57,951 nucleotides of DNA from Candidatus Heimdallarchaeota archaeon (GCA_019057375.1 DXJF01000149.1:1-57951), one strand, 5' to 3'; shown: positions 18,237 to 28,519, counted from the stretch's first letter. Translations and numbers: made by a program. The notes: a model not told the origin generated them from the sequence alone.

Positions 18237-18623
18237 ATGTTAATTATTATAGATTCTAGCATGCTAATGCTTCCTCTTGAAAAAAAGATAAATTTATCTT
18301 ATGAGATAGAACGATTGGTGCAAACAAGTTTTGAAATTGTTGTACCACAAATTGTTTTTGATGAATTAGAGAGATTATCAGAAAAAGAAAGCCCTTCTAT
18401 TAAGCAAAAGGCAAAACTAGCATTAGAATTGGCTAACGGGTTTGTAAAAATAGAATCAAACACTAATTGCCATGCTGATGAAGAAATATTACGATTGGCA
18501 TTAGAAAAAAAAGCAATTGTTGCCACAAACGATACTGAGCTGCGTTTGAGGTTACGGGAGAAGGGGATTGTAGTTATTTCTTTACGTGGGAAGAATAAGC
18601 TTTCTTTGTTCGGTGATATCTAG
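18237..18623 (+). CDS. PIN-domain ribonuclease (Utp24/Fcf1-like)
   Basis: IIIDSS, VFDEL, ADEEI, VATND; conserved position after aIF2g. Confidence 0.88.
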   Translation: MLIIIDSSMLMLPLEKKINLSYEIERLVQTSFEIVVPQIVFDELERLSEKESPSIKQKAKLALELANGFVKIESNTNCHADEEILRLALEKKAIVATNDTELRLRLREKGIVVISLRGKNKLSLFGDI

Positions 18624-18764: not shown

Positions 18765-19331
18765 ATGGAAATTGAAAGTTTATTTCCTGAAATTAAAGAA
18801 ATCAAGAATATTGATTTGCTGAATAAGGTAGCGAAATCTCTTGAAAAAGCAATTCAACAAGGTGGATGGAGCACACAAGATCTTCACAAAATTCCTTTCA
18901 CACTGTTAATTCCCGACTTAGTCAATGAAGATCTTACAGTGAAAATATCAATTATAGATCATATTCGAGCTGTAACACAGATGTGTTTAGCCACTTATGA
19001 AAGATATGAGATGCTTGGTCTTGGAGATAAGTTAAATAGAGATGAGCTAATCGCAGGTGGATTACTACACGATGTAGGAAAATTCATCGAGTATGAAAAA
19101 GACGAAACTGGACATATAATTCAGACAGCGGAAGGAAAATACTTACGTCATCCAGCGATGGGTCTTGAATTAGTTTATGAATATTCTTTACCACTGATTG
19201 TTAGACAAGCTATTGTTTTTCACAGTAAAGAAGGAGATAAAATTCCTAGATTAAAAGAAGTAGAAATTATTCATCGCTGTGATTTTCTTTGTTTTGCTCC
19301 AATAAAACAAATATTTGAAGAAAATAAATGA
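18765..19331 (+). CDS. HD-domain metal-dependent phosphohydrolase
   Basis: DHIRAV, GGLLHDVGK, LRHP, FHS, HRCD. Confidence 0.85.
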   Translation: MEIESLFPEIKEIKNIDLLNKVAKSLEKAIQQGGWSTQDLHKIPFTLLIPDLVNEDLTVKISIIDHIRAVTQMCLATYERYEMLGLGDKLNRDELIAGGLLHDVGKFIEYEKDETGHIIQTAEGKYLRHPAMGLELVYEYSLPLIVRQAIVFHSKEGDKIPRLKEVEIIHRCDFLCFAPIKQIFEENK

Positions 19332-19350
19332 GGAAAAGGTGTTTTTTAAA

Positions 19351-20484
19351 ATGAAGAAATACAAAATTGCAGTTTTACCAGGTGATGGTGTTGGTGTTGA
19401 CGTAACAGAAGCAGCAATGAAAGTTTTGGATGCTGTTGGATTCAGTGAAAAAGCTGAATATACCTATGGAGATATAGGCTGGGAATTTTGGTGTAAGGAA
19501 GGAAATCCTTTACCAGATAGAACAATTGAGCTTCTAAAGAATTCAGACTGTTCTTTGTTTTCAGCTATCACATCAAAACCAAAAGAAGAAGCTGAAAAGG
19601 AATTAGTTTCAGAATTACTAGGTAAAGGGTTAATTTACTTTAGTCCTATTGTGAGATTACGACAACTGTTTGACCTTTATATCAACTTACGTCCTTGTAA
19701 AGCTTATCCGGGTAATCCTCTTAATTACAGGGATGATATTGATTTGGTAGTTTTTCGTGAAAATACTGAAGGGCTTTATGTCGGAATAGAATGGCATCCT
19801 GTCCCAGAAGCAGTAATGAAAACAATTATTGAAAATCATCCCAAGGCAAAACGATTTGAAGAAGCGAATCTTGATGATGTAGCCATATCTACTAGAATAT
19901 TCACTCGAGAAGGAGTTCAACGTATTCTAAAGGCTAGCATGGATTATGCGAAGGAGTTTGACTACCCTACTGTAACTGTTGTAGAAAAACCAAATGTTAT
20001 CAGAGAAACAGGCGGTTTAATTATACGAGAAGCAAGAAAACTGATACAAGATTATGACAATATAGAATTGTGGGAAACCAACATCGATGCAATGGCTATG
20101 TGGTTAGTAAAAAATCCACAGAATTACGGAGTTTTAGTAGCTTCTAACATGTTCGGAGATATTGTTTCAGACCTAGCAGCTCAGTTAATAGGCGGATTAG
20201 GTTTTGCTTGCTCAGGAAATATAGGCGAAAATTTTGCTGTTTTTGAGCCAACCCATGGATCTGCTCCAAAGTATGTGGGGATGAATAAAGTAAACCCAAT
20301 TGCACAAATTCTTGCTGCAAAAATGATGTTGGGCTGGTTAGGTGAAAAACACATGGCCAACAAGATTGAAGATGCAGTAGCAGCTGTAATTGTTGAAGGA
20401 AAATATCGCACTTATGATATGGGTGGAAATACAACAACTTCTGAAATGGCAGATGCTATTTGCGAGAAAATAAATTCTCTTTAA
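19351..20484 (+). CDS. Isocitrate/isopropylmalate dehydrogenase family, homoisocitrate dehydrogenase-like
   Basis: LPGDGVG, YFSPIVRLRQ..DLY.NLRP, RENTEGLY, NMFGDIVSD, EPTHGSAPK. Confidence 0.85.
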   Translation: MKKYKIAVLPGDGVGVDVTEAAMKVLDAVGFSEKAEYTYGDIGWEFWCKEGNPLPDRTIELLKNSDCSLFSAITSKPKEEAEKELVSELLGKGLIYFSPIVRLRQLFDLYINLRPCKAYPGNPLNYRDDIDLVVFRENTEGLYVGIEWHPVPEAVMKTIIENHPKAKRFEEANLDDVAISTRIFTREGVQRILKASMDYAKEFDYPTVTVVEKPNVIRETGGLIIREARKLIQDYDNIELWETNIDAMAMWLVKNPQNYGVLVASNMFGDIVSDLAAQLIGGLGFACSGNIGENFAVFEPTHGSAPKYVGMNKVNPIAQILAAKMMLGWLGEKHMANKIEDAVAAVIVEGKYRTYDMGGNTTTSEMADAICEKINSL

Positions 20485-20577
20485 CTTGTTTTTTCCTTCA
20501 TTTTTTTCTTATACCATTTTCTATGAAAATCAATACCCCATAAATACATAAGGATAATCTTATTACTTCTTTATTAG

Positions 20578-21864
20578 TTGGTGAAACTGAGCGAAATGAC
20601 TAGCTTCACACTTATTGAAAAAATCATTAGAAATCGTACAGATTCTTCAGATAGTGAAATCTATCCAAACAACATAGTATGGATTGATCTTGATTTGGTC
20701 ACGGCAAGAGATTATGCAGGACCTCAAGTCATAGATCTATTTCAAAAAAATTATACTGGTTCTAAAACATTCAATAATGAAAAAATTATCTTTACTCCAG
20801 ATTGTTATCCTTATGGCAATGATCCAAAGCATGCAAAAGATCAAGAAAAAATTCGTGTATTTGCAAAAGAACATGGAATCAAGGTAACTGATCTCGGATC
20901 AGGTATAGGGTCTCATTTATTGTTTCGAAGAGGTTTTTCAAAACCAGGAGATATAGCTATTGGAGCTGATAGTCATTATAATATTCTTGGAGCTTTAGGA
21001 ATCTTAGGTCAAGGAGCGGGAGATGTCATGCTTGCTTTTGCTTTGAAAACAGGAAAATCATGGATAAAAATTCCTGAAACTGTAAAAGTTATCTTAAAAG
21101 GAGATTATGAGTGGCCAACAACAGCAAAAGATTTAGCTCTTTATGTTCTTAAAGAACTTCATGAATATGGAATTACAGGTAAAGCTGTCGAATTCTATGG
21201 TGAAATTATTGACAAGTTATCAATTGAAGAAAGAGTGACTTTATGTTCTCTGATTACAGAAGCTTCAGGCGTTATTGGATTTGTACCTGCTGATAAAATT
21301 ACAACTGATTATTACTCCGAGAATGGAATCGAGATAGAAATGTTATCCGCTGATGAAGATGCAAGATATGTCTCAGAATTAGTCTTAGATATTCAAAATT
21401 TAGGCCAATACATTGCATGTCCTCCACATCCACATAATGTCAAAAAAATTGAGGAAGTAATTGGTATTCCTATAAATTCTATTGTTATTGGTTCTTGTAC
21501 AAATGGAAGTTCAGCAGATATTCATGATGCTGCAAAGATTCTAAAGGGACATAAAATCAACCCAAATGTGAGATTTGGAGTAGTTCCTGCAACTAGAGAG
21601 GATTTCGTTTCAATCAATCTAAATGGTGATATGGCAATAATTCTAGAATCTGGTGGAAACTTTTTTGGTGCAGGCTGTTCAACCTGCGCGAAAGGACAAT
21701 ATGGTTTAACTGGGGGTGAAACAGCTGTAACTCTAACAACAGGAAACAGAAATACTCAAGGTAAAATTGGTCCCGCAGATGTTTATTTAGCTAGTCCTGT
21801 TGTAGCAGCAGCTACAGCAATTGAAGGAAAAATTGCTGCTCCTAAAGAGGTGGTTAAAAGATGA
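20578..21864 (+). CDS. Divergent LeuC/HacA-type aconitase-family large subunit
   Basis: GADSH, IGSCTNG and GAGCSTC (three Fe-S Cys) and TGNRN are kept; several substrate-site His residues are replaced. Confidence 0.8.
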   Translation: MVKLSEMTSFTLIEKIIRNRTDSSDSEIYPNNIVWIDLDLVTARDYAGPQVIDLFQKNYTGSKTFNNEKIIFTPDCYPYGNDPKHAKDQEKIRVFAKEHGIKVTDLGSGIGSHLLFRRGFSKPGDIAIGADSHYNILGALGILGQGAGDVMLAFALKTGKSWIKIPETVKVILKGDYEWPTTAKDLALYVLKELHEYGITGKAVEFYGEIIDKLSIEERVTLCSLITEASGVIGFVPADKITTDYYSENGIEIEMLSADEDARYVSELVLDIQNLGQYIACPPHPHNVKKIEEVIGIPINSIVIGSCTNGSSADIHDAAKILKGHKINPNVRFGVVPATREDFVSINLNGDMAIILESGGNFFGAGCSTCAKGQYGLTGGETAVTLTTGNRNTQGKIGPADVYLASPVVAAATAIEGKIAAPKEVVKR

Positions 21865-22367
21865 ATAAAGAAACAATCAAAGCTAAAGCAAAGCTAGTCA
21901 TGGTAGATGACATTGATACTGACCAAATATTTCATCAATCCTTATTAACAATTCATGACCCCAATGAAATAAAACCGCATATTTTCGGGAATCTTGAAGG
22001 GTATAAGAGTTTTGGAAAGGAAAACAATGTTGGGAAAATACTATTGGTTGGTAAAAATTTCGGTAAAGGATCCACAAGGCAACAAGCTGTAACAGGATTT
22101 CTAGCTCATGGAATCAAAGCAATAATTGGTGTATCTTTTGGACCAATTTATTATAGTAATTCTGTAAATTCAGGTTTACTCCTTGTAGAAGTACCAGGAA
22201 TATCTGAATTCAATGTTAAAGAAGATGATGATCTAGAAATAGACATAACTCAATCATTAATTATCAACCAAAATAATGGGGAGACCATTAAATGTGCTAA
22301 AATACCTCAGCCAGTATTAGATATAATGAAAGCTGGTGGTCTTTTAAAACTTGGAGAAATAATGTAA
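21861..22367 (+). CDS. Divergent LeuD/HacB-type small (swivel) subunit
   Basis: DDIDTDQI, GKNFGKGSTRQQA (canonical GxNFGCGSSREHA). Confidence 0.8.
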   Translation: MNKETIKAKAKLVMVDDIDTDQIFHQSLLTIHDPNEIKPHIFGNLEGYKSFGKENNVGKILLVGKNFGKGSTRQQAVTGFLAHGIKAIIGVSFGPIYYSNSVNSGLLLVEVPGISEFNVKEDDDLEIDITQSLIINQNNGETIKCAKIPQPVLDIMKAGGLLKLGEIM

Positions 22368-22370
22368 GAA

Positions 22371-24230
22371 GTGGGATATATGAATGGTAAAACATTTTCA
22401 GAAAAACTTTTTTCGTTTAAGTCAAATACACATGTGAAAGCTGGTGACATTGTTTATGCAGAACCTGATTTAATTCTGTCACACGACAATTCAGCATCAA
22501 TAGAAAAAACTTTTCAAAAAATGGGTGGAACAAAAATCAAATTTCCTGAACGTCTTGTAATCGTCTTGGATCATGATTCCCCACCAACGAGTGCCAAGAT
22601 AGCAAATGATCATAAAAGTATTAGAGAATTAGTTAGAAAGCAAAATATCACTAATTTCTATGATGAGGGGAGGGGAATCTGCCATCAATTGATGTCCAAC
22701 CATGCTTCACCTAATATGCTCATTGTTGGATCAGATTCTCATACATGCACAAGTGGTGCATTTGCTACATTTGCAGCAGGAATTGATAGAACAGAAACAG
22801 CAGGATTGTGGTTAACAGGAAAGACTTGGTTTAGAGTACCTGAAACAATCAAAGTTGTGCTAAATGGGAAATTGTCTTTGGGTGTTTATGCAAAAGATAT
22901 TGCTTTATGGTTAATGAATAAAATAGGCGCTGCTGGAGCGACCTATTATGCAATTGAGTTTCATGGAAAGGGAATCGAAACTTTGTCTATATCTGAAAGA
23001 ATGACACTAACAAACCTAGCTTCAGAGATGGGTGCTAAAACTGCTATTTTTCCACCAGATAAAGTTTTAATCAATTGGTTAAAGGAGAAATATAGTTCAT
23101 CTGTAATTCCACAAGATAAACTATTCTGGTCAGACAAAGATGCAATATTCAGCAGAGAAATCATTCTAGATTTAGGCAAATTGGAACCTTTAGTTGCAGT
23201 TCCACATCAAGTAGACAATACACAATTTGCCAAAAAACTGGAAGAAACCCCCATTCATCAAGCTTTTCTGGGAACTTGTACAAATGCCAGATTAGATGAT
23301 TTAGAGATTGCTGCAAAAATAATCAAAAATAAAAAAGTGAAAAACGACATAATATTTCTTGTAGCTCCAGCTTCGAATAAGATCTATCTTGAAGCATTAG
23401 AGAAGGGGATTATTCAAACACTTGTTAAGGCAGGCGCAACAATACTTTCATGCAGTTGTGGTCCTTGTTTAGGCAAAGGACAAGGAATACCGGCTGACGA
23501 TTGGAATGTTTTATCTACTGCAAACAGGAATTTTCTAGGAAGAATGGGAAATAAAAATGCACGTATATTTTTAGCATCTCCAGCTACTATAACAGCTTCT
23601 GCAATTGAAGGAAAAATTACAGATCCCAGAAAACATCTATCATCTAGAGCCATAAGAGAAGAAACTGAAATAGTGCTACAATATAGAGATGTAGAAACTA
23701 AAACCCTTGAAATAGACTCTAAAGACGATAGATACAGCATGTATGTTTGGGATTATAGTGATATTGATGATTTCAACACAGATCAGATGTTTGCTGGAGG
23801 TCTTACATACGACATTAAGTCTTCAGAGGGGGATAAAATAGTACCACATCTATTCAAAGGCTTAGATGAAACTTTTGCAGCTAGAATTAAGAAGGGGGAT
23901 ATTGTAATAGGTGGCGAAAATTTTGGATGTGGTTCATCAAGAGAACATCCAGCTGTAGGACTTGCAGCTGCAGGTGTGAAAGCTGTTATTGTAAAATCAG
24001 TCTCTCGAATCTTTTATAGATCTGCAATTAACCAAGGATTACCAATCATTGTACATCAAGAGTTTGTCGATAAATTTGATAAAACACAGCAAACAATAAT
24101 TGACTTGGAAAAGGGCCAAATTACAAATGGAGGTCAAGTTTATTCTTTCCCAAAACTACCAAGTGAATTACTAGAAATATTCACAGCTGGAGGACTTATC
24201 AAATATTATCAAAAACAATATTCAAACTAG
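22371..24230 (+). CDS. Single-chain (fused large + small) homoaconitase/isopropylmalate isomerase-like hydratase
   Basis: SHDN, LDHD, GICHQ, GSDSHTCT, GTCTNAR, CGPCLG, TANRNF.GRMG, then DDFNTDQ and GENFGCGSSREH. Confidence 0.88.
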   Translation: MGYMNGKTFSEKLFSFKSNTHVKAGDIVYAEPDLILSHDNSASIEKTFQKMGGTKIKFPERLVIVLDHDSPPTSAKIANDHKSIRELVRKQNITNFYDEGRGICHQLMSNHASPNMLIVGSDSHTCTSGAFATFAAGIDRTETAGLWLTGKTWFRVPETIKVVLNGKLSLGVYAKDIALWLMNKIGAAGATYYAIEFHGKGIETLSISERMTLTNLASEMGAKTAIFPPDKVLINWLKEKYSSSVIPQDKLFWSDKDAIFSREIILDLGKLEPLVAVPHQVDNTQFAKKLEETPIHQAFLGTCTNARLDDLEIAAKIIKNKKVKNDIIFLVAPASNKIYLEALEKGIIQTLVKAGATILSCSCGPCLGKGQGIPADDWNVLSTANRNFLGRMGNKNARIFLASPATITASAIEGKITDPRKHLSSRAIREETEIVLQYRDVETKTLEIDSKDDRYSMYVWDYSDIDDFNTDQMFAGGLTYDIKSSEGDKIVPHLFKGLDETFAARIKKGDIVIGGENFGCGSSREHPAVGLAAAGVKAVIVKSVSRIFYRSAINQGLPIIVHQEFVDKFDKTQQTIIDLEKGQITNGGQVYSFPKLPSELLEIFTAGGLIKYYQKQYSN

Positions 24231-24240
24231 AGGGATAAAA

Positions 24241-25557
24241 ATGAAATTATACGAATATGAGGCAAAACAGATTTTTGAGCAGTTTAACCTTAAAATTCCT
24301 AAACAAATAGCAATAATAGAAAGCGTTGAAGATTTAGTTGATATATCTTTAGAATTTCCAATTATGGTTAAGGCTATGGTTTTGATTGGAGGGAGGGGAA
24401 AAGCAGGAGGAATAAAGAAAGCTGAAACTATTGAGGAAACAGAGAGCATCATAAAGGAAATGTTGGGTTTAACAATTCATGGTTATCCCATAAAGAAAAT
24501 TTTACTTGAGGAAGCTGTTGATATTGCAAGTGAAATCTACTTATCCATAACCACCGATCCTGCAACTTTTGATATAGTATTGGTGACATCTGCAAGTGGG
24601 GGTGTTGATATAGAAGAAGTTGCTCGAACTAAACCAGATGAAATATGGAAGAAAGTACTAAGAAATAATGATAAATCTTTGAATGTTGAAATAGGAAAAA
24701 AAGCTGCAGAATTTCTAGTAGATAAAAATCAAAATCTCAAACCAGTGAGTGAAAAACTCCAACAAACTATTGAATCTCTTTATTTGGCTTTTCAGAATGC
24801 TGAAGCAAAAATTTGTGAAATAAACCCTCTAATTGTAACAAAAAACGGAGATATAATTGCTGCTGATGCAAAATTTGTACTTGATGATAACAGCTTGTAT
24901 AGACAAACACCTTTGCTGAAATCAATTGGAATAGATCCCGGAAGTAAAAGACACGATGTTTCAGAGCAAACAGTTTTTGAAGCAAAAGCATATCAAATCG
25001 GTTTTCCGTTTCTTGATTTACTTGAGAATCCAGAGAATTTCGTGAAAGATGAAGAGAAACTGTATGTAGGTCTTGTTCCAGGAGGAGCAGGATATGGAAT
25101 TTTTTCTGTAGATGAAACTGTTAATGTTGGAAATCGATATTTCAATGGTAAGGTTATTCCAATAAATTTCATGGATAGTGGTGGCGGCCCTTCAATAAGC
25201 AAGGTTGCAGATATGTTTCATCTCCTAATGGATCATCCCGCAACAGATCTGATTATAACTAGTCGTTTTGGGGGGATATCTAGTTGTGATGTCTTCATTC
25301 AAGGATTGATTATGTCATTAAGAGATAGATTCATTGCTAAGAAAAGGATGATACCAGTTTTTGGTCGAATGGTTGGAACTGATTTAGCAGCTGCAAAAGC
25401 TTTCCTTGAGAAAGCTAAGCTAGAAACTCCAGAACCATTGATAGACCTACACATCATTGTTGGAAATCAAAAGATAATGGCTGATGTCATTAAAGATGGA
25501 ATTGAATATGGGTTTAAAGTGAAAAAGCAAAGTGAGAACAAGGAGGGTATTAAATGA
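24241..25557 (+). CDS. ATP-grasp acyl-CoA synthetase beta subunit (SucC / ATP-citrate lyase beta-like), divergent C-terminal domain
   Basis: MKLYEYEAKQIF, GGRGKAGGIK, SASGGVDIEE, EINPL, ADAKFVLDDN; C-terminal PGGAGYG and NFMDSGGG. Confidence 0.82.
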   Translation: MKLYEYEAKQIFEQFNLKIPKQIAIIESVEDLVDISLEFPIMVKAMVLIGGRGKAGGIKKAETIEETESIIKEMLGLTIHGYPIKKILLEEAVDIASEIYLSITTDPATFDIVLVTSASGGVDIEEVARTKPDEIWKKVLRNNDKSLNVEIGKKAAEFLVDKNQNLKPVSEKLQQTIESLYLAFQNAEAKICEINPLIVTKNGDIIAADAKFVLDDNSLYRQTPLLKSIGIDPGSKRHDVSEQTVFEAKAYQIGFPFLDLLENPENFVKDEEKLYVGLVPGGAGYGIFSVDETVNVGNRYFNGKVIPINFMDSGGGPSISKVADMFHLLMDHPATDLIITSRFGGISSCDVFIQGLIMSLRDRFIAKKRMIPVFGRMVGTDLAAAKAFLEKAKLETPEPLIDLHIIVGNQKIMADVIKDGIEYGFKVKKQSENKEGIK

Positions 25558-27695
25558 TAACTGATAAACTAGCTGTGGATCAAGGACTTCTCTATTATCT
25601 CATCAAACACATTCATCCTGAACTCGCTCAGAAAATATCCGGAAAGAAAACAATTGAAACAATGATTGTTGGATTAGGAAGACAAGGAACTCGACACGCA
25701 CAACTTATGATGGAATATGGGACCAACGTTACTTGTGGAGTAGCACCAGGCAAAGGTGGTACATTTGTTCATGAAACTGTTCCTGTTTATGAATCTGCTG
25801 ATGTAGCAAAAAGGAAACACCCTGATATAGCGGTAGCAAGTATATGGAAACATTATTCTTCTGCTAAAGATGCTACAATTGAAGTTATTAGATCAGGAAT
25901 TCCTATTGTTGTTCTAATTTCAGAATTTATTCCACTTAAGGATGTAAGAGACATTCTAGTTGAAGCTAGAAAACATAAAACAATCTTATTTGGAGGTAAC
26001 ACACCAGGAATAATATTTCCTCCAGAAGGAATAAAAGTGGGTATGCTTCCAGATATTTTTCAGGCTCAGAAAACTGATAACAAAATTGGTCCTAAAGGAG
26101 TGACAATATTATCACGAAGTGGAGCTATTCTATATCATTTATCTGATGCACTAGCTAGTGCAGGAATTGCTCAAAATGGAGTTTTGGGGGTAGGGGGAGA
26201 TGGAGCTATTGGTTCTCGCTTTATAGACCTTGTATCAAGAATAATGCGATACGAGCACACAGATTTAGTTGTTATCGCTGGTGAAATTGGTGGAATGCAG
26301 GAAGAATTGCTAGCCCAAGACATGAAAGCAAATCCAGAAAAATATCAAAAACCCCTAGTTGCATTAATATCCGGAGCCAATGCTCCGGAAGGAAAAACCA
26401 TGGGTCATGCTGGAGCTGTAATTTCTCCCGGGCAAAGTTATGGTACTTATCAATCAAAGAAGGAATCCTTGGAAAAAGCAGGAGTAACAGTGATAAACCA
26501 TCAAAGAGATTTAATAGATGCTGTAAAGTCAAAATTAAATCGAACATATTTTGATATTGAGGAATATTACTCAAAAATGCGCAAAAAATGGGATGCTAGA
26601 CCACCAGTGAAAACTTGGGGGACTTTAGTAACTAATGTAATGCCAAACAATTTGATAATTCGAGGATATCCTCTACAAGAAATTATAGCAAAGAAAGGAT
26701 TTCTGGAAACGTCATATTTACTCCTTAAAGGAGAATTCCCTGAAGAAGCTCAACTTAAAGAGCTTGAGGATACTGCAAAGAAAGCAACAAAACAAGAATT
26801 CACAGACCTTAAATCGATTACCATAAGTTCAGACATATCTAAAACCCTTGGAACATTGATGTTGGTCGATAATAAACTTGCAGATTTTGTAAGAATGAAT
26901 TCTGAAGAAACAAAAATCGCAGCTTATACATTGGGAAGAGTCTTGAAGTATTTTGCATATATTCTAGGCAATTTAGATCATCTAGAATCTTCTTCAGTTT
27001 CTGAAACATCGTTCTCAGAAATGATATATCTAGGATTGGTCAAAGAAAAAAACCCAGACACACTTAAAGTTAAGCTGTTAGAAGCAATGATTACTGCTTG
27101 TGTAGATCACGGAATCACACCACCATCTGCTCAAGCGACAATAATCCTAGCGTCGACTAGAGCTAATTATGAAGTAGCTGTAGCTGGAGGTTTACAAGCA
27201 ATTACTGATGTTCATGGTGGTGCAGGACAAAAGGCAGCTAAATTCTTCTTATCAGTTGTTGAAAAAGCTGAAAAAGAAAAATTGGAACTCGATGAATCCA
27301 CCTTCAAATTGATACGTGAAACAATCAAAACCGGCAAAAGAATTGAAGGTTTAGGTCACCGTATTCATACACAAGATCCTAGAAGAGATGTTTTATGGAA
27401 ACTTGCAGAAGATGCAGGATATGCAAAGAGTTGTGTCGATGTTTCAAAAATGATTAGCAGTACTTTCCACCGTGTGCGAGGAATGAACCTTCCTATTAAC
27501 GTAGATGGGGTTATTGCTGCAATTACAGCTGACATGGGATTAGACCCAAAACTTGCAAAAGTTATTTTTGTATTTGGAAGAACAGCAGGATTGGCTGCAC
27601 ATTATTTTGAGGAAATTAATACTCAACCTCAGATGAGAAGGATAGCGTTTGATAACGCTACTTACAAAGGACCATCAATTAGAGAAATTAAATAG
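25554..27695 (+). CDS. Fused SucD-like CoA-binding/phospho-His domain + citrate-synthase-fold (citryl-CoA lyase-like) domain; ATP-citrate lyase alpha-type architecture
   Basis: GVAPGKGG, SRSGA, EIGG, GKTMGHAGA (phospho-His); then IIRGYPL, DHGITPPS, VHGGAG, GLGHRIH..DPR, INVDG, GRTAGLAAH. Confidence 0.82.
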   Translation: MITDKLAVDQGLLYYLIKHIHPELAQKISGKKTIETMIVGLGRQGTRHAQLMMEYGTNVTCGVAPGKGGTFVHETVPVYESADVAKRKHPDIAVASIWKHYSSAKDATIEVIRSGIPIVVLISEFIPLKDVRDILVEARKHKTILFGGNTPGIIFPPEGIKVGMLPDIFQAQKTDNKIGPKGVTILSRSGAILYHLSDALASAGIAQNGVLGVGGDGAIGSRFIDLVSRIMRYEHTDLVVIAGEIGGMQEELLAQDMKANPEKYQKPLVALISGANAPEGKTMGHAGAVISPGQSYGTYQSKKESLEKAGVTVINHQRDLIDAVKSKLNRTYFDIEEYYSKMRKKWDARPPVKTWGTLVTNVMPNNLIIRGYPLQEIIAKKGFLETSYLLLKGEFPEEAQLKELEDTAKKATKQEFTDLKSITISSDISKTLGTLMLVDNKLADFVRMNSEETKIAAYTLGRVLKYFAYILGNLDHLESSSVSETSFSEMIYLGLVKEKNPDTLKVKLLEAMITACVDHGITPPSAQATIILASTRANYEVAVAGGLQAITDVHGGAGQKAAKFFLSVVEKAEKEKLELDESTFKLIRETIKTGKRIEGLGHRIHTQDPRRDVLWKLAEDAGYAKSCVDVSKMISSTFHRVRGMNLPINVDGVIAAITADMGLDPKLAKVIFVFGRTAGLAAHYFEEINTQPQMRRIAFDNATYKGPSIREIK

Positions 27696-27703
27696 GATGT
27701 TGA

Positions 27704-28519
27704 TTGGAGAAAAGAATGAATGATCTAGCATTTGAGATAATTGGAGATATATTGATTATCAGAGATGATTCGGATGAAAATTCTTTGAAAGACTTTGCAG
27801 AAGAAAAAATTCAAAAACACTCTTTTATTAAAACAGTATTGCTTCAAACCTCCAAAATCCAGGGACAAGAGCGAAAAAGAAATCTCAGGTATGTTATGGG
27901 AAAAAACAAATCAGAAACAATACACAAAGAGCACGGAAATTCATTCTTAGTGGATCTATCTGAAGTATTTTTCTCTCCTCGCTTGAGCTACGAAAGACAA
28001 AGAATTGCTAATTTGGTTGTAGAAAACGAAATAATCCTAAATTTCTTTTCAGGAGTTGGTCCGTTTAGTATAGCTTTGGCATCGAAATGCAATTCATGTG
28101 TTGTTCATAGTATTGAAATAAATAAAACAGCATATGATTATTTTCTAAAAAATATTGAACTAAACAAATGTCAGGAAAAAGTTATTCCTTATTTCGGAGA
28201 CGCTTTTGAGATTGTTCCAAAAATGTTCATCAACAGTGTAAATAGAGTTTTGCTTCCTTTACCCCTAGATTCAGATAAAGCCCTTCCAATAGCTTATCAA
28301 ACTCTGAAAGACGGAAGAGGAGTTATTCATTGGCAAATTACAGAAAGAATAAGCTCAAAAAAGATAAGAGAAGAAATGATTACTGACAGAATTAATAGAA
28401 TCCCTCATTCGTACATTTTCTCTACGAATTATACAATTACAAATATGAGATTGATTAGATGGTTAGGTCAAAAAATAGCACATATTGCAGTAGATTTAAG
28501 TTTTAAAACTCTTGAATAG
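27704..28519 (+). CDS. Trm5/Tyw2 (Met-10+) family tRNA-modifying SAM-dependent transferase
   Basis: FEIIGDILI, HKEHG..F.VD...VFFSPRL..ERQRI, NFFSGVGPF, IEIN. Confidence 0.85.
   Translation: MEKRMNDLAFEIIGDILIIRDDSDENSLKDFAEEKIQKHSFIKTVLLQTSKIQGQERKRNLRYVMGKNKSETIHKEHGNSFLVDLSEVFFSPRLSYERQRIANLVVENEIILNFFSGVGPFSIALASKCNSCVVHSIEINKTAYDYFLKNIELNKCQEKVIPYFGDAFEIVPKMFINSVNRVLLPLPLDSDKALPIAYQTLKDGRGVIHWQITERISSKKIREEMITDRINRIPHSYIFSTNYTITNMRLIRWLGQKIAHIAVDLSFKTLE

Follow-up and report, generated by a model that had tools for sequence, protein, structure and literature searches.

Within a 57,951-nucleotide contig of Candidatus Heimdallarchaeota archaeon (GCA_019057375.1, DXJF01000149.1:1-57951; here the window, meaning the whole stretch of DNA that was analysed) lies a seven-gene operon that raises a simple question: which acid is made or cleaved by an enzyme pair that has the architecture of ATP-citrate lyase (ACL) but appears to be a different enzyme? 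The pair consists of LigB, a SucC-like subunit, and LigA, in which a SucD-like half is fused to a citrate-synthase-fold domain. The other genes encode an HD protein, a dehydrogenase (DH) and two hydratases, one split (HydL and HydS, together HydLS) and one fused (HydF). Judged by its domains and motifs, LigBA is not a canonical ACL, and its architecture and residues make ligase-then-lyase chemistry of the ACL type likely. Homocitrate is our candidate for the substrate of the module, with rather less than an even chance of being the right one.

Organization of the operon and its ligase subunits

Domains were called on the window proteins with Pfam and NCBIfam models, giving the following gene order:

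18765..19331, + strand: HD protein, 188 aa (HDIG; Pfam HD 39.9 bits, TIGR00277)
19315..20484, + strand: dehydrogenase (DH) of the Iso_dh family, 389 aa as the open reading frame (ORF) is listed, probable start 19351 (PF00180)
20578..21864, + strand: HydL, hydratase large subunit (PF00330, Aconitase)
21861..22367, + strand: HydS, hydratase small subunit (PF00694, Aconitase_C)
22371..24230, + strand: HydF, fused hydratase, 619 aa (Aconitase and Aconitase_C)
24241..25557, + strand: LigB, SucC-like ATP-grasp subunit, 438 aa (ATP-grasp_2 and Ligase_CoA)
25554..27695, + strand: LigA, 713 aa (CoA_binding, Ligase_CoA and Citrate_synt)

As the initial annotation described, the seven genes are co-oriented and tightly linked: all seven ORFs were recovered on the + strand across 18765-27695, separated by overlaps or gaps of no more than 93 nt, including 4-nt overlaps between HydL and HydS and between LigB and LigA. 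The likeness to ACL drawn in that annotation, a SucC-like subunit paired with a fusion of SucD to a citrate-synthase fold, also holds, with CoA_binding, Ligase_CoA and Citrate_synt residing on the single LigA chain. The CoA-binding and phosphohistidine domains occupy LigA residues ~30-330, where His285 of the GHAGA phosphohistidine motif is invariant.

In Pfam searches, LigB matched ATP-grasp_2 at 150 bits together with Ligase_CoA, and the citrate-binding domain of ACL, PF16114, was not found in it. Against sequences of solved structures, LigB scored 176 bits with the beta subunit of succinyl-CoA synthetase (SCS), 80 with citryl-CoA synthetase (CCS) and 48 with AclB, and for the SucD part of LigA the scores were 179 (SCS-alpha), 110 (AclA) and 101 bits (CCS). 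Both nevertheless fell under the curated SCS cut-offs (238 vs 370 for SucC and 214 vs 353 for SucD), and the genome carries one further, standard SucCD pair on contig C63, at 30-33% identity; an ordinary SCS, the outcome that had been named as refuting the initial reading, is therefore very improbable. The substrate site of the ligase was compared by loop motifs alone: the LigB loops NFMDSGGGP and RFGGISSCD have an SCS-like shape but are altered, with GGISSCD corresponding to AGITRCD in the genome's own SucC, and are unlike the ACL motifs NYGEYSG and GGIANFT.

The lyase domain has a complete citrate-synthase fold

The lyase domain comprises LigA residues ~340-713 (~370 aa). It scored 155 bits with Citrate_synt (PF00285), against a cut-off of 27, and reached no citrate-synthase equivalog cut-off. 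The best solved match to the C-terminal 374 residues was the citryl-CoA lyase (CCL) of Hydrogenobacter, at 125 bits. Unlike the 268-aa Ccl and the lyase module of ACL, however, the domain aligns along the entire length of citrate synthases (CS), and its AlphaFold model (pLDDT 92.7) superposed in Foldseek on citrate and methylcitrate synthases with TM scores of 0.70-0.77 in both directions.

Residues H519, H554, H602, R610, D651 and R676 are invariant in LigA. Of these, H519, H602 and D651 are the equivalents of His274, His320 and Asp375 of citrate synthase, and equivalents of its Arg329 and Arg401, two oxaloacetate-binding residues, are also kept. Two differences are specific to the family. 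The H602-R610 loop is one residue shorter than in CS and CCL, and no arginine aligns with the CS 'RPR' or CCL 'EER' motif; instead R695, invariant across 40 domain sequences, lies ~4 residues upstream. Both lie at the site that holds the distal oxaloacetate carboxylate in CS and CCL.

In a quick maximum-likelihood tree supported by SH-aLRT values only (as was the HydLS tree below), the fused domains and stand-alone relatives of 350-380 aa formed one clade with 100% SH-aLRT, separate from short CCL-like proteins and from the citrate synthases and AclA modules of Asgard archaea. With LigB lacking PF16114 and the lyase domain in a clade of its own, the pair falls outside canonical ACL. The family extends to bacteria, with 52% identity in Aminicenantales. 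Source names in the databases give it no tested name; such proteins are listed under 'succinyl-CoA synthetase alpha' or 'citrate synthase'. The full-length stand-alone relatives (P0125, P0128 and others; 350-380 aa) nest within the fused clade, which suggests, from the tree, repeated fusion or fission with SucD.

The dehydrogenase and the HydLS hydratase depart from their canonical counterparts

DH belongs to PF00180 (295 bits). Its orthologues begin at Met13 of the listed ORF, so the true start is probably 19351. The top NCBIfam model is the homoisocitrate dehydrogenase (HICDH) AksF2, at 320 bits vs a cut-off of 540, followed by AksF at 282 bits (cut-off 500); no curated HICDH cut-off was reached, and the best isocitrate dehydrogenase (IDH) model gave 266 bits against a cut-off of 510, so that DH does not classify as an IDH. 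Among solved structures the best match was Thermus HICDH, at 222 bits. Motifs with the catalytic Tyr, Lys and Asp residues are visible in the sequence.

The YFSPIVRLR segment singled out in the initial annotation, which likened it to YSSPIVALR of fungal HICDHs, is indeed present. It forms the loop S110-P-I112-V-R114, in which the Asn of the IDH S-x-N motif is absent. This motif binds the gamma-carboxylate of isocitrate, and IDHs of the related families f5 and f19 read S-A-N or S-V-N, which places DH outside bona fide IDHs. A LeuB-like paralogue reads V-V-L at the same position. By contrast with these variations, Y-x-S-P-I-V-x-x-R occurs in all module dehydrogenases compared (50-90% identical; from f5, f19, metagenomes and f1, the family of this genome), for which the best curated models are again methanogen homoisocitrate dehydrogenases, below cut-off.

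Both hydratases are of the LeuC/HacA type rather than AcnA/B, as had been proposed, with HydF passing its subfamily cut-off and HydL slightly under it. HydF scored 493 bits with PRK00402 (cut-off 385), 483 with hacA_fam and 480 with IPMI_arch, and reached no equivalog cut-off. It has the canonical Fe-S and catalytic motifs, with three Cys ligands and GSSREH, its small-domain loop 'IKSS' aligns to 'LRTT' of HacB, and in a quick tree it groups with the split LeuCD-like genes of other clusters. HydL scored 225 bits with PF00330 and 359 with its NCBIfam subfamily, under the cut-off of 385. HydL and its relatives form a distinct HydLS clade (100% SH-aLRT), which retains the three Cys ligands and has a remodelled substrate site. 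The clade signature is 'ARD', where LeuC has (S/T)HD and aconitase TQD, placing an Arg where LeuC carries His and aconitase Gln. A CxxC motif (C-S-T-C in the window HydL) replaces CGPC of LeuC. Most other members read 'GKQG' vs 'GRMG' in LeuC, the window HydL reading QGKIG, and in most members, the window HydL excepted, a Lys replaces the Arg of the LeuC motif NRNFxGR. HydS carries GSTRQQ in place of GSSREH, and the loop 'LLTI' at the position of 'YLRT' in HacB. Asgard genomes encode the HydLS enzyme as two chains and other metagenome lineages as a single fused one (~585 aa); within the clusters it alternates with a PrpD-like protein.

Conservation of the module across Asgard genomes and metagenomes

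A survey of operon conservation, a check suggested in the initial annotation, covered 201 Asgard genomes, including 21 of f1. The full seven-gene order was found in four other f1 genomes and in metagenome contigs, so the linkage of the genes is not due to chance. Genes of the LigA, HydL and DH types co-occur in the same 18 f1 genomes plus the source genome, and f1 genomes without module genes miss all three. Among the genomes that lack them are two closed genomes of genus g3, so the module is dispensable; these also lack any aconitase-, Iso_dh- or citrate-synthase-family gene. Family f1 has neither canonical citrate synthase nor ACL, and PF16114, found in 45/201 Asgard genomes, occurs in 0/21 f1 genomes.

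In related families, the module stands beside canonical enzymes. The f5 genomes G139 and G217 (closed) have the module in pieces, with LigBA at one locus and, at a second, an HD gene with a DH-type gene (56% identity), a HydLS-type enzyme and a LeuCD-like pair. Both also carry a canonical AclB-AclA-Iso_dh-aconitase cluster, whose aconitase scores 975 bits on PRK07229, over the cut-off, plus AcnA, and G217 has citrate synthases as well. This cluster is compact (L036, G139:C1:84000-98000; L043, G217), with the order AclB-AclA-Iso_dh (397 aa, S-A-N)-PRK07229-type fused aconitase. In f19, DH-LigB-LigA and HD-HydLS are accompanied by a stand-alone CCL, AcnA and a bona fide NADP-IDH. No HMGL-type synthase was found in module-bearing f1, f5 (G139, G217) and f6 genomes, lysW was not found in G133, G139 and G217, and DapA was not found in module-bearing f5 genomes.

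Scanning metagenomes with lyase-domain motifs returned 80 loci. The most constant core, HD-LigB-LigA, is present in most of those long enough to show it, in the following arrangements:

Pattern A: HD-LigB-LigA, then fused HydLS (585 aa)
Pattern A2: HD-LigB-LigA, then a B12 radical SAM gene
Pattern B: DH, LeuCD-like pair, HD, LigB, LigA, MmgE/PrpD-family protein
Pattern C: HD, fused HydLS, LeuCD-like pair, LigB, LigA
Pattern D: the seven-gene operon as in this window

Every cluster with a LeuCD-like hydratase also has a second (de)hydratase, either HydLS or the MmgE/PrpD-family protein; patterns A and A2 have one hydratase or none within 10 kb. The PrpD-like partner scored only 113 bits against a PrpD model cut-off of 575. 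Pattern-B clusters are flanked by hydrogenase, 2-hydroxyacid dehydrogenase and FrhB-like genes, and no lysine genes were found in these flanks. The HD protein is a conserved partner of the ligase: its homologue lies within the cluster in 37 metagenome loci, mostly adjoining LigB, and its gene adjoins the dehydrogenase or HydL in f1, f5 and f19. Searches of the PDB and ESM-Atlas with this protein returned generic HD matches only.

Several further arrangements were seen around LigBA and its relatives. At loci of the A2 lineage (L144, L161, L170 and 13 others), LigA is immediately followed by a co-oriented gene for a 439-aa B12-binding radical SAM protein, and neither a hydratase nor a dehydrogenase was found within 10 kb. 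In f5 and f6, the genes near LigBA show no clear link to it; they include IOR, a 4HBT thioesterase, an opposite-strand CitF-like gene and methyltransferases. The CitF-family gene (citrate lyase alpha/CoA-transferase) at L021 8133-9713 (G139:C9) is convergent to LigA and comes after an IorA-4HBT-IorB-like set, and an ORF similar to it precedes LigA in G136 (L027). At L040 (G041:C5:364500-368500), a bona fide NADP-IDH gene has a weak HMGL-like neighbour (496 aa), in a genome that lacks canonical citrate synthase; the two may be a pair of the Re-citrate-synthase type.

Genomic context

The genome assembly measures 3.47 Mb and is 89% complete; absences described here rest on it and on the sampled relatives. 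The operon is its sole source of Iso_dh, aconitase-family and citrate-synthase-family genes. In agreement with the initial annotation, which had found no homocitrate or isopropylmalate synthase, no HMGL-like synthase (LeuA, homocitrate synthase (HCS) or CimA) was found anywhere in the assembly, nor were lysW, DapA and IlvD. Five 2-oxoacid:ferredoxin oxidoreductases are present and, taken with the missing genes, give the organism the look of an amino-acid auxotroph and fermenter. Lysine synthesis is unlikely because homocitrate synthase, LysW and DapA were not found, and the operon does not appear to be part of leucine or lysine synthesis.

The operon is flanked by translation and tRNA genes, namely aIF2-gamma and the following:

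18237-18623, + strand: PIN_9-domain gene, between aIF2-gamma and the HD gene
27704-28519, + strand: Trm5/Taw-like tRNA methyltransferase gene, starting 8 nt past the LigA stop

These genes are co-oriented and close, so the transcription unit may be longer than seven genes. The PIN_9 gene shares its orientation with aIF2-gamma and the HD gene. Six metagenome loci from the same lineage also have a 270-aa Trm5/Taw-like homologue after LigA, so the gene may be co-transcribed with the operon. The window has a GC content of ~33%, and its closest named proteins are from 'Candidatus Heimdallarchaeota'.

A proposed reaction sequence and its alternatives

From the gene content, conservation, residues and fold described above, we infer a substrate, a direction and a physiological role for the module as follows. 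It would be self-contained: through a hydroxy-tricarboxylate of the citrate type, acetyl-CoA and a 2-oxo-dicarboxylate would be interconverted with CO2 and the next-longer 2-oxo-dicarboxylate, the C-C bond step being coupled to ATP/ADP as in ACL. Family chemistry and the conserved residues suggest that His285 receives a phosphate through the action of the ATP-grasp subunit LigB and LigA's SucD-like half; the tricarboxylate's CH2-COO- arm would next carry an acyl phosphate and then a CoA thioester. The citrate-synthase-fold domain (His519, His602 and Asp651) would split this thioester into acetyl-CoA and the 2-oxoacid, or run in reverse and yield ATP. HydLS and HydF would shift the hydroxyl through a cis-ene intermediate, and DH would perform oxidative decarboxylation or reductive carboxylation. 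With homocitrate, the sequence would link 2-oxoadipate, CO2, NAD(P)H, ATP and CoA to 2-oxoglutarate and acetyl-CoA.

Our favoured but tentative reading, to which we give about one chance in three, is that LigB and LigA form an ATP-homocitrate lyase that, with HydLS, HydF and DH, reverses the first half of the aminoadipate pathway, converting 2-oxoadipate and CO2 to 2-oxoglutarate and acetyl-CoA. The module would then probably be catabolic, in a peptide-fermenting lysine auxotroph. The conversion of homocitrate to homoisocitrate takes two enzymes in Thermus and yeast, as does the corresponding conversion of 2-methylcitrate, and the two (de)hydratases of the LeuCD-bearing clusters match this two-enzyme route. 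An ATP-homocitrate enzyme had already been put forward in the initial annotation, and it is partly supported by an ACL-like pair outside canonical ACL, a dehydrogenase outside bona fide IDHs, the missing synthase and the coexistence of the module with canonical citrate enzymes in related genomes. The HICDH models that fit DH best and the altered distal-carboxylate site of the lyase domain also speak for homocitrate. The biosynthetic direction offered with the initial reading is not supported, since lysW and DapA were not found in f1 and f5.

A number of observations weigh against homocitrate. Among enzymes of known function, citryl-CoA lyase is the nearest to the lyase domain, and to our knowledge all characterised citrate-synthase-fold enzymes use oxaloacetate and none 2-oxoglutarate. 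In DH, Arg85 of Thermus HICDH is not kept; Val113 aligns to it, with Arg114 adjacent. Genes of the HydL and DH types occur without LigA in some f5, f6 and f20 genomes. As no lysine pathway is present in f1 or f5, homocitrate is left with only a catabolic or unknown role, and no route from lysine to 2-oxoadipate was identified in f1, where the saccharopine-dehydrogenase-like gene adjoins an MFS transporter and is also found in genomes without the module. Finally, the operon is the only possible citrate/isocitrate route in this genome, where nothing else could join acetyl-CoA and oxaloacetate to 2-oxoglutarate, so a role with citrate remains.

That role would make LigBA either an ATP-citrate lyase of a third kind or a citrate synthase that yields ATP, such as that of Desulfobacter, with HydLS and/or HydF as aconitase and DH as NAD(P)-isocitrate dehydrogenase. 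Such a citrate branch of non-canonical enzymes would link acetyl-CoA and oxaloacetate to 2-oxoglutarate, for glutamate synthesis or reductive glutamate fermentation. Besides the relationship to Hydrogenobacter citryl-CoA lyase, it draws on the retained catalytic His/His/Asp and Arg329 and Arg401 equivalents, on the fact that across f1 the operon alone supplies aconitase-, Iso_dh- and citrate-synthase-family genes, and on the ability of Thermus-type HICDH, which lacks the Asn, to accept isocitrate. However, it would be redundant with the canonical ACL, aconitase, IDH and citrate synthase set of f5 and with the IDH and AcnA of f19, and this coexistence counts against a plain citrate branch. DH also lacks the S-x-N motif that is present in every bona fide IDH compared; one aconitase suffices for the interconversion of citrate and isocitrate, yet every LeuCD-bearing cluster has a second dehydratase; and the two closed g3 genomes do without the entire module. 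On balance we consider citrate possible but doubtful. Still less likely, though not negligible, is ACL-like chemistry on another hydroxy-acid, be it a longer or substituted citrate homologue or an unconsidered compound, with HydLS or the PrpD-like protein as a specialised first dehydratase. The ligase, lyase domain, HydLS and DH all score below every curated equivalog cut-off, the PrpD-like partner is remote from PrpD models, the substrate site of HydLS has been rebuilt (Arg for the LeuC His or aconitase Gln, and mostly Lys for the LeuC Arg elsewhere in the clade), and the HD partner has no counterpart in known citrate or homocitrate pathways. Against such an acid, three invariant Arg residues of the lyase domain suggest a tricarboxylate substrate, and 2-methylcitrate is excluded on chemical grounds: a dehydrogenase cannot oxidise 2-methylisocitrate, which is a tertiary alcohol, and methylisocitrate lyase was not found among the recurrent neighbours.

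Two simpler readings we reject. An ordinary SCS whose alpha subunit is fused to citrate synthase, giving two independent tricarboxylic acid (TCA) cycle activities and no citryl-CoA-type intermediate, would agree with ligase parts whose SCS scores exceed those for ACL and CCS and with a full citrate-synthase fold at the C-terminus; the sub-threshold scores and the separate SucCD pair render it very improbable, and the altered GGISSCD loop, a lyase domain nearest to CCL rather than CS and the conservation of the pair beside hydratases and a dehydrogenase, not other TCA genes, point the same way. Biosynthetic 2-oxoacid elongation for leucine or lysine, which the LeuCD/HacAB-type hydratases and the IPMDH/HICDH-type dehydrogenase might call to mind, is more improbable again: the synthase and downstream genes (LeuA/HCS/CimA, IlvD, LysW and DapA) were not found in this genome, nor were LeuA/HCS, LysW and DapA in module-bearing f5 genomes.

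If the ATP-homocitrate lyase reading is right, LigA would be the first citrate-synthase-fold enzyme to act on 2-oxoglutarate instead of oxaloacetate, and the module would give sediment archaea and bacteria an undescribed way to handle lysine-derived carbon without oxygen; a homocitrate substrate would define a new catabolic pathway that is widespread in protein-degrading sediment microbes. Enzymes that cleave or make citrate are used to trace carbon fixation and Krebs-cycle history, also in Asgard archaea, the nearest known relatives of eukaryotes. LigBA proteins carry the name of SCS alpha or citrate synthase and are probably neither, so metabolic reconstructions of Asgard archaea may err at this point. 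Verschueren et al. (cited in PMC11237513) reportedly proposed in 2019 that citrate synthase arose from citryl-CoA-lyase-like enzymes; LigA, which joins SucD to a complete citrate-synthase fold and nests within citryl-CoA-lyase-like proteins, bears on such a lyase origin.

Comparison with known systems

LigBA shares with AclAB of Chlorobium and Methanothrix (PDB 6hxj, 6hxi) the pairing of a SucC-like subunit with a SucD-like/lyase fusion, the GHAGA motif and a presumed ligase-then-lyase order. It differs in that LigB lacks PF16114 and the pair scores just 48 and 110 bits against AclB and AclA, in its full-length lyase domain (~370 aa, in a separate clade, against a module of ~260 aa) and in its HD partner. 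Canonical AclAB is present in other Asgard families and shares genomes with LigBA in f5. An 'ACL' has been reported in Asgard archaea (bioRxiv 10.1101/2022.10.25.513756; PMC11976288). Because PF16114 occurs in 45/201 Asgard genomes, the reported enzyme is most likely the canonical one, probably that of the AclB-AclA-Iso_dh-aconitase cluster of the related genomes.

The CcsAB and Ccl enzymes of Hydrogenobacter thermophilus (PDB 6hxq, 6hxp) likewise combine an SCS-like ligase with a CS-family lyase that acts after it. There, CcsA, CcsB and the ~260-aa Ccl are separate, whereas LigA fuses the small subunit with the lyase and has ~105 residues beyond Ccl that complete the citrate-synthase fold; for LigB and LigA, the CCS scores (80 and 101 bits) are also below those for SCS. 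For bacteria, an uncharacterised 'type II ACL' and fusions of ccsB with ccl have been proposed, with Magnetococcus (Mmc1_3638/3639), tubeworm symbionts and Planctomycetes as carriers (PMC3522073, PMC6783814, PMC5459899). Compared by description, these too are non-canonical two-gene candidates for citrate cleavage with a small subunit fused to a lyase; fusions of 555-575 aa, possibly of this kind, are distant relatives only (242-283 bits). A literature search, incomplete in coverage, returned no paper on a fusion of SucD with a full citrate synthase, on the HD partner or on an ATP-homocitrate lyase.

Pattern B recalls the 2-methylcitrate cycle (PrpC, PrpD, aconitase and PrpB) in clustering CS-, PrpD- and aconitase-family genes. 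Unlike in that cycle, a beta-decarboxylating dehydrogenase replaces methylisocitrate lyase and the synthase is predicted to be ATP-coupled. We rejected the cycle itself as a candidate, given that the dehydrogenase could not oxidise the tertiary alcohol and that PrpB was not among the recurrent neighbours. With the alpha-aminoadipate pathway and the Aks pathway of methanogens, the module shares a HacAB/LeuCD-type hydratase and a HICDH-like dehydrogenase. Unlike those pathways, it has no HMGL-type synthase and no LysW-type downstream pathway, and an ATP-coupled enzyme with a citrate-synthase fold would stand in the place of the synthase.

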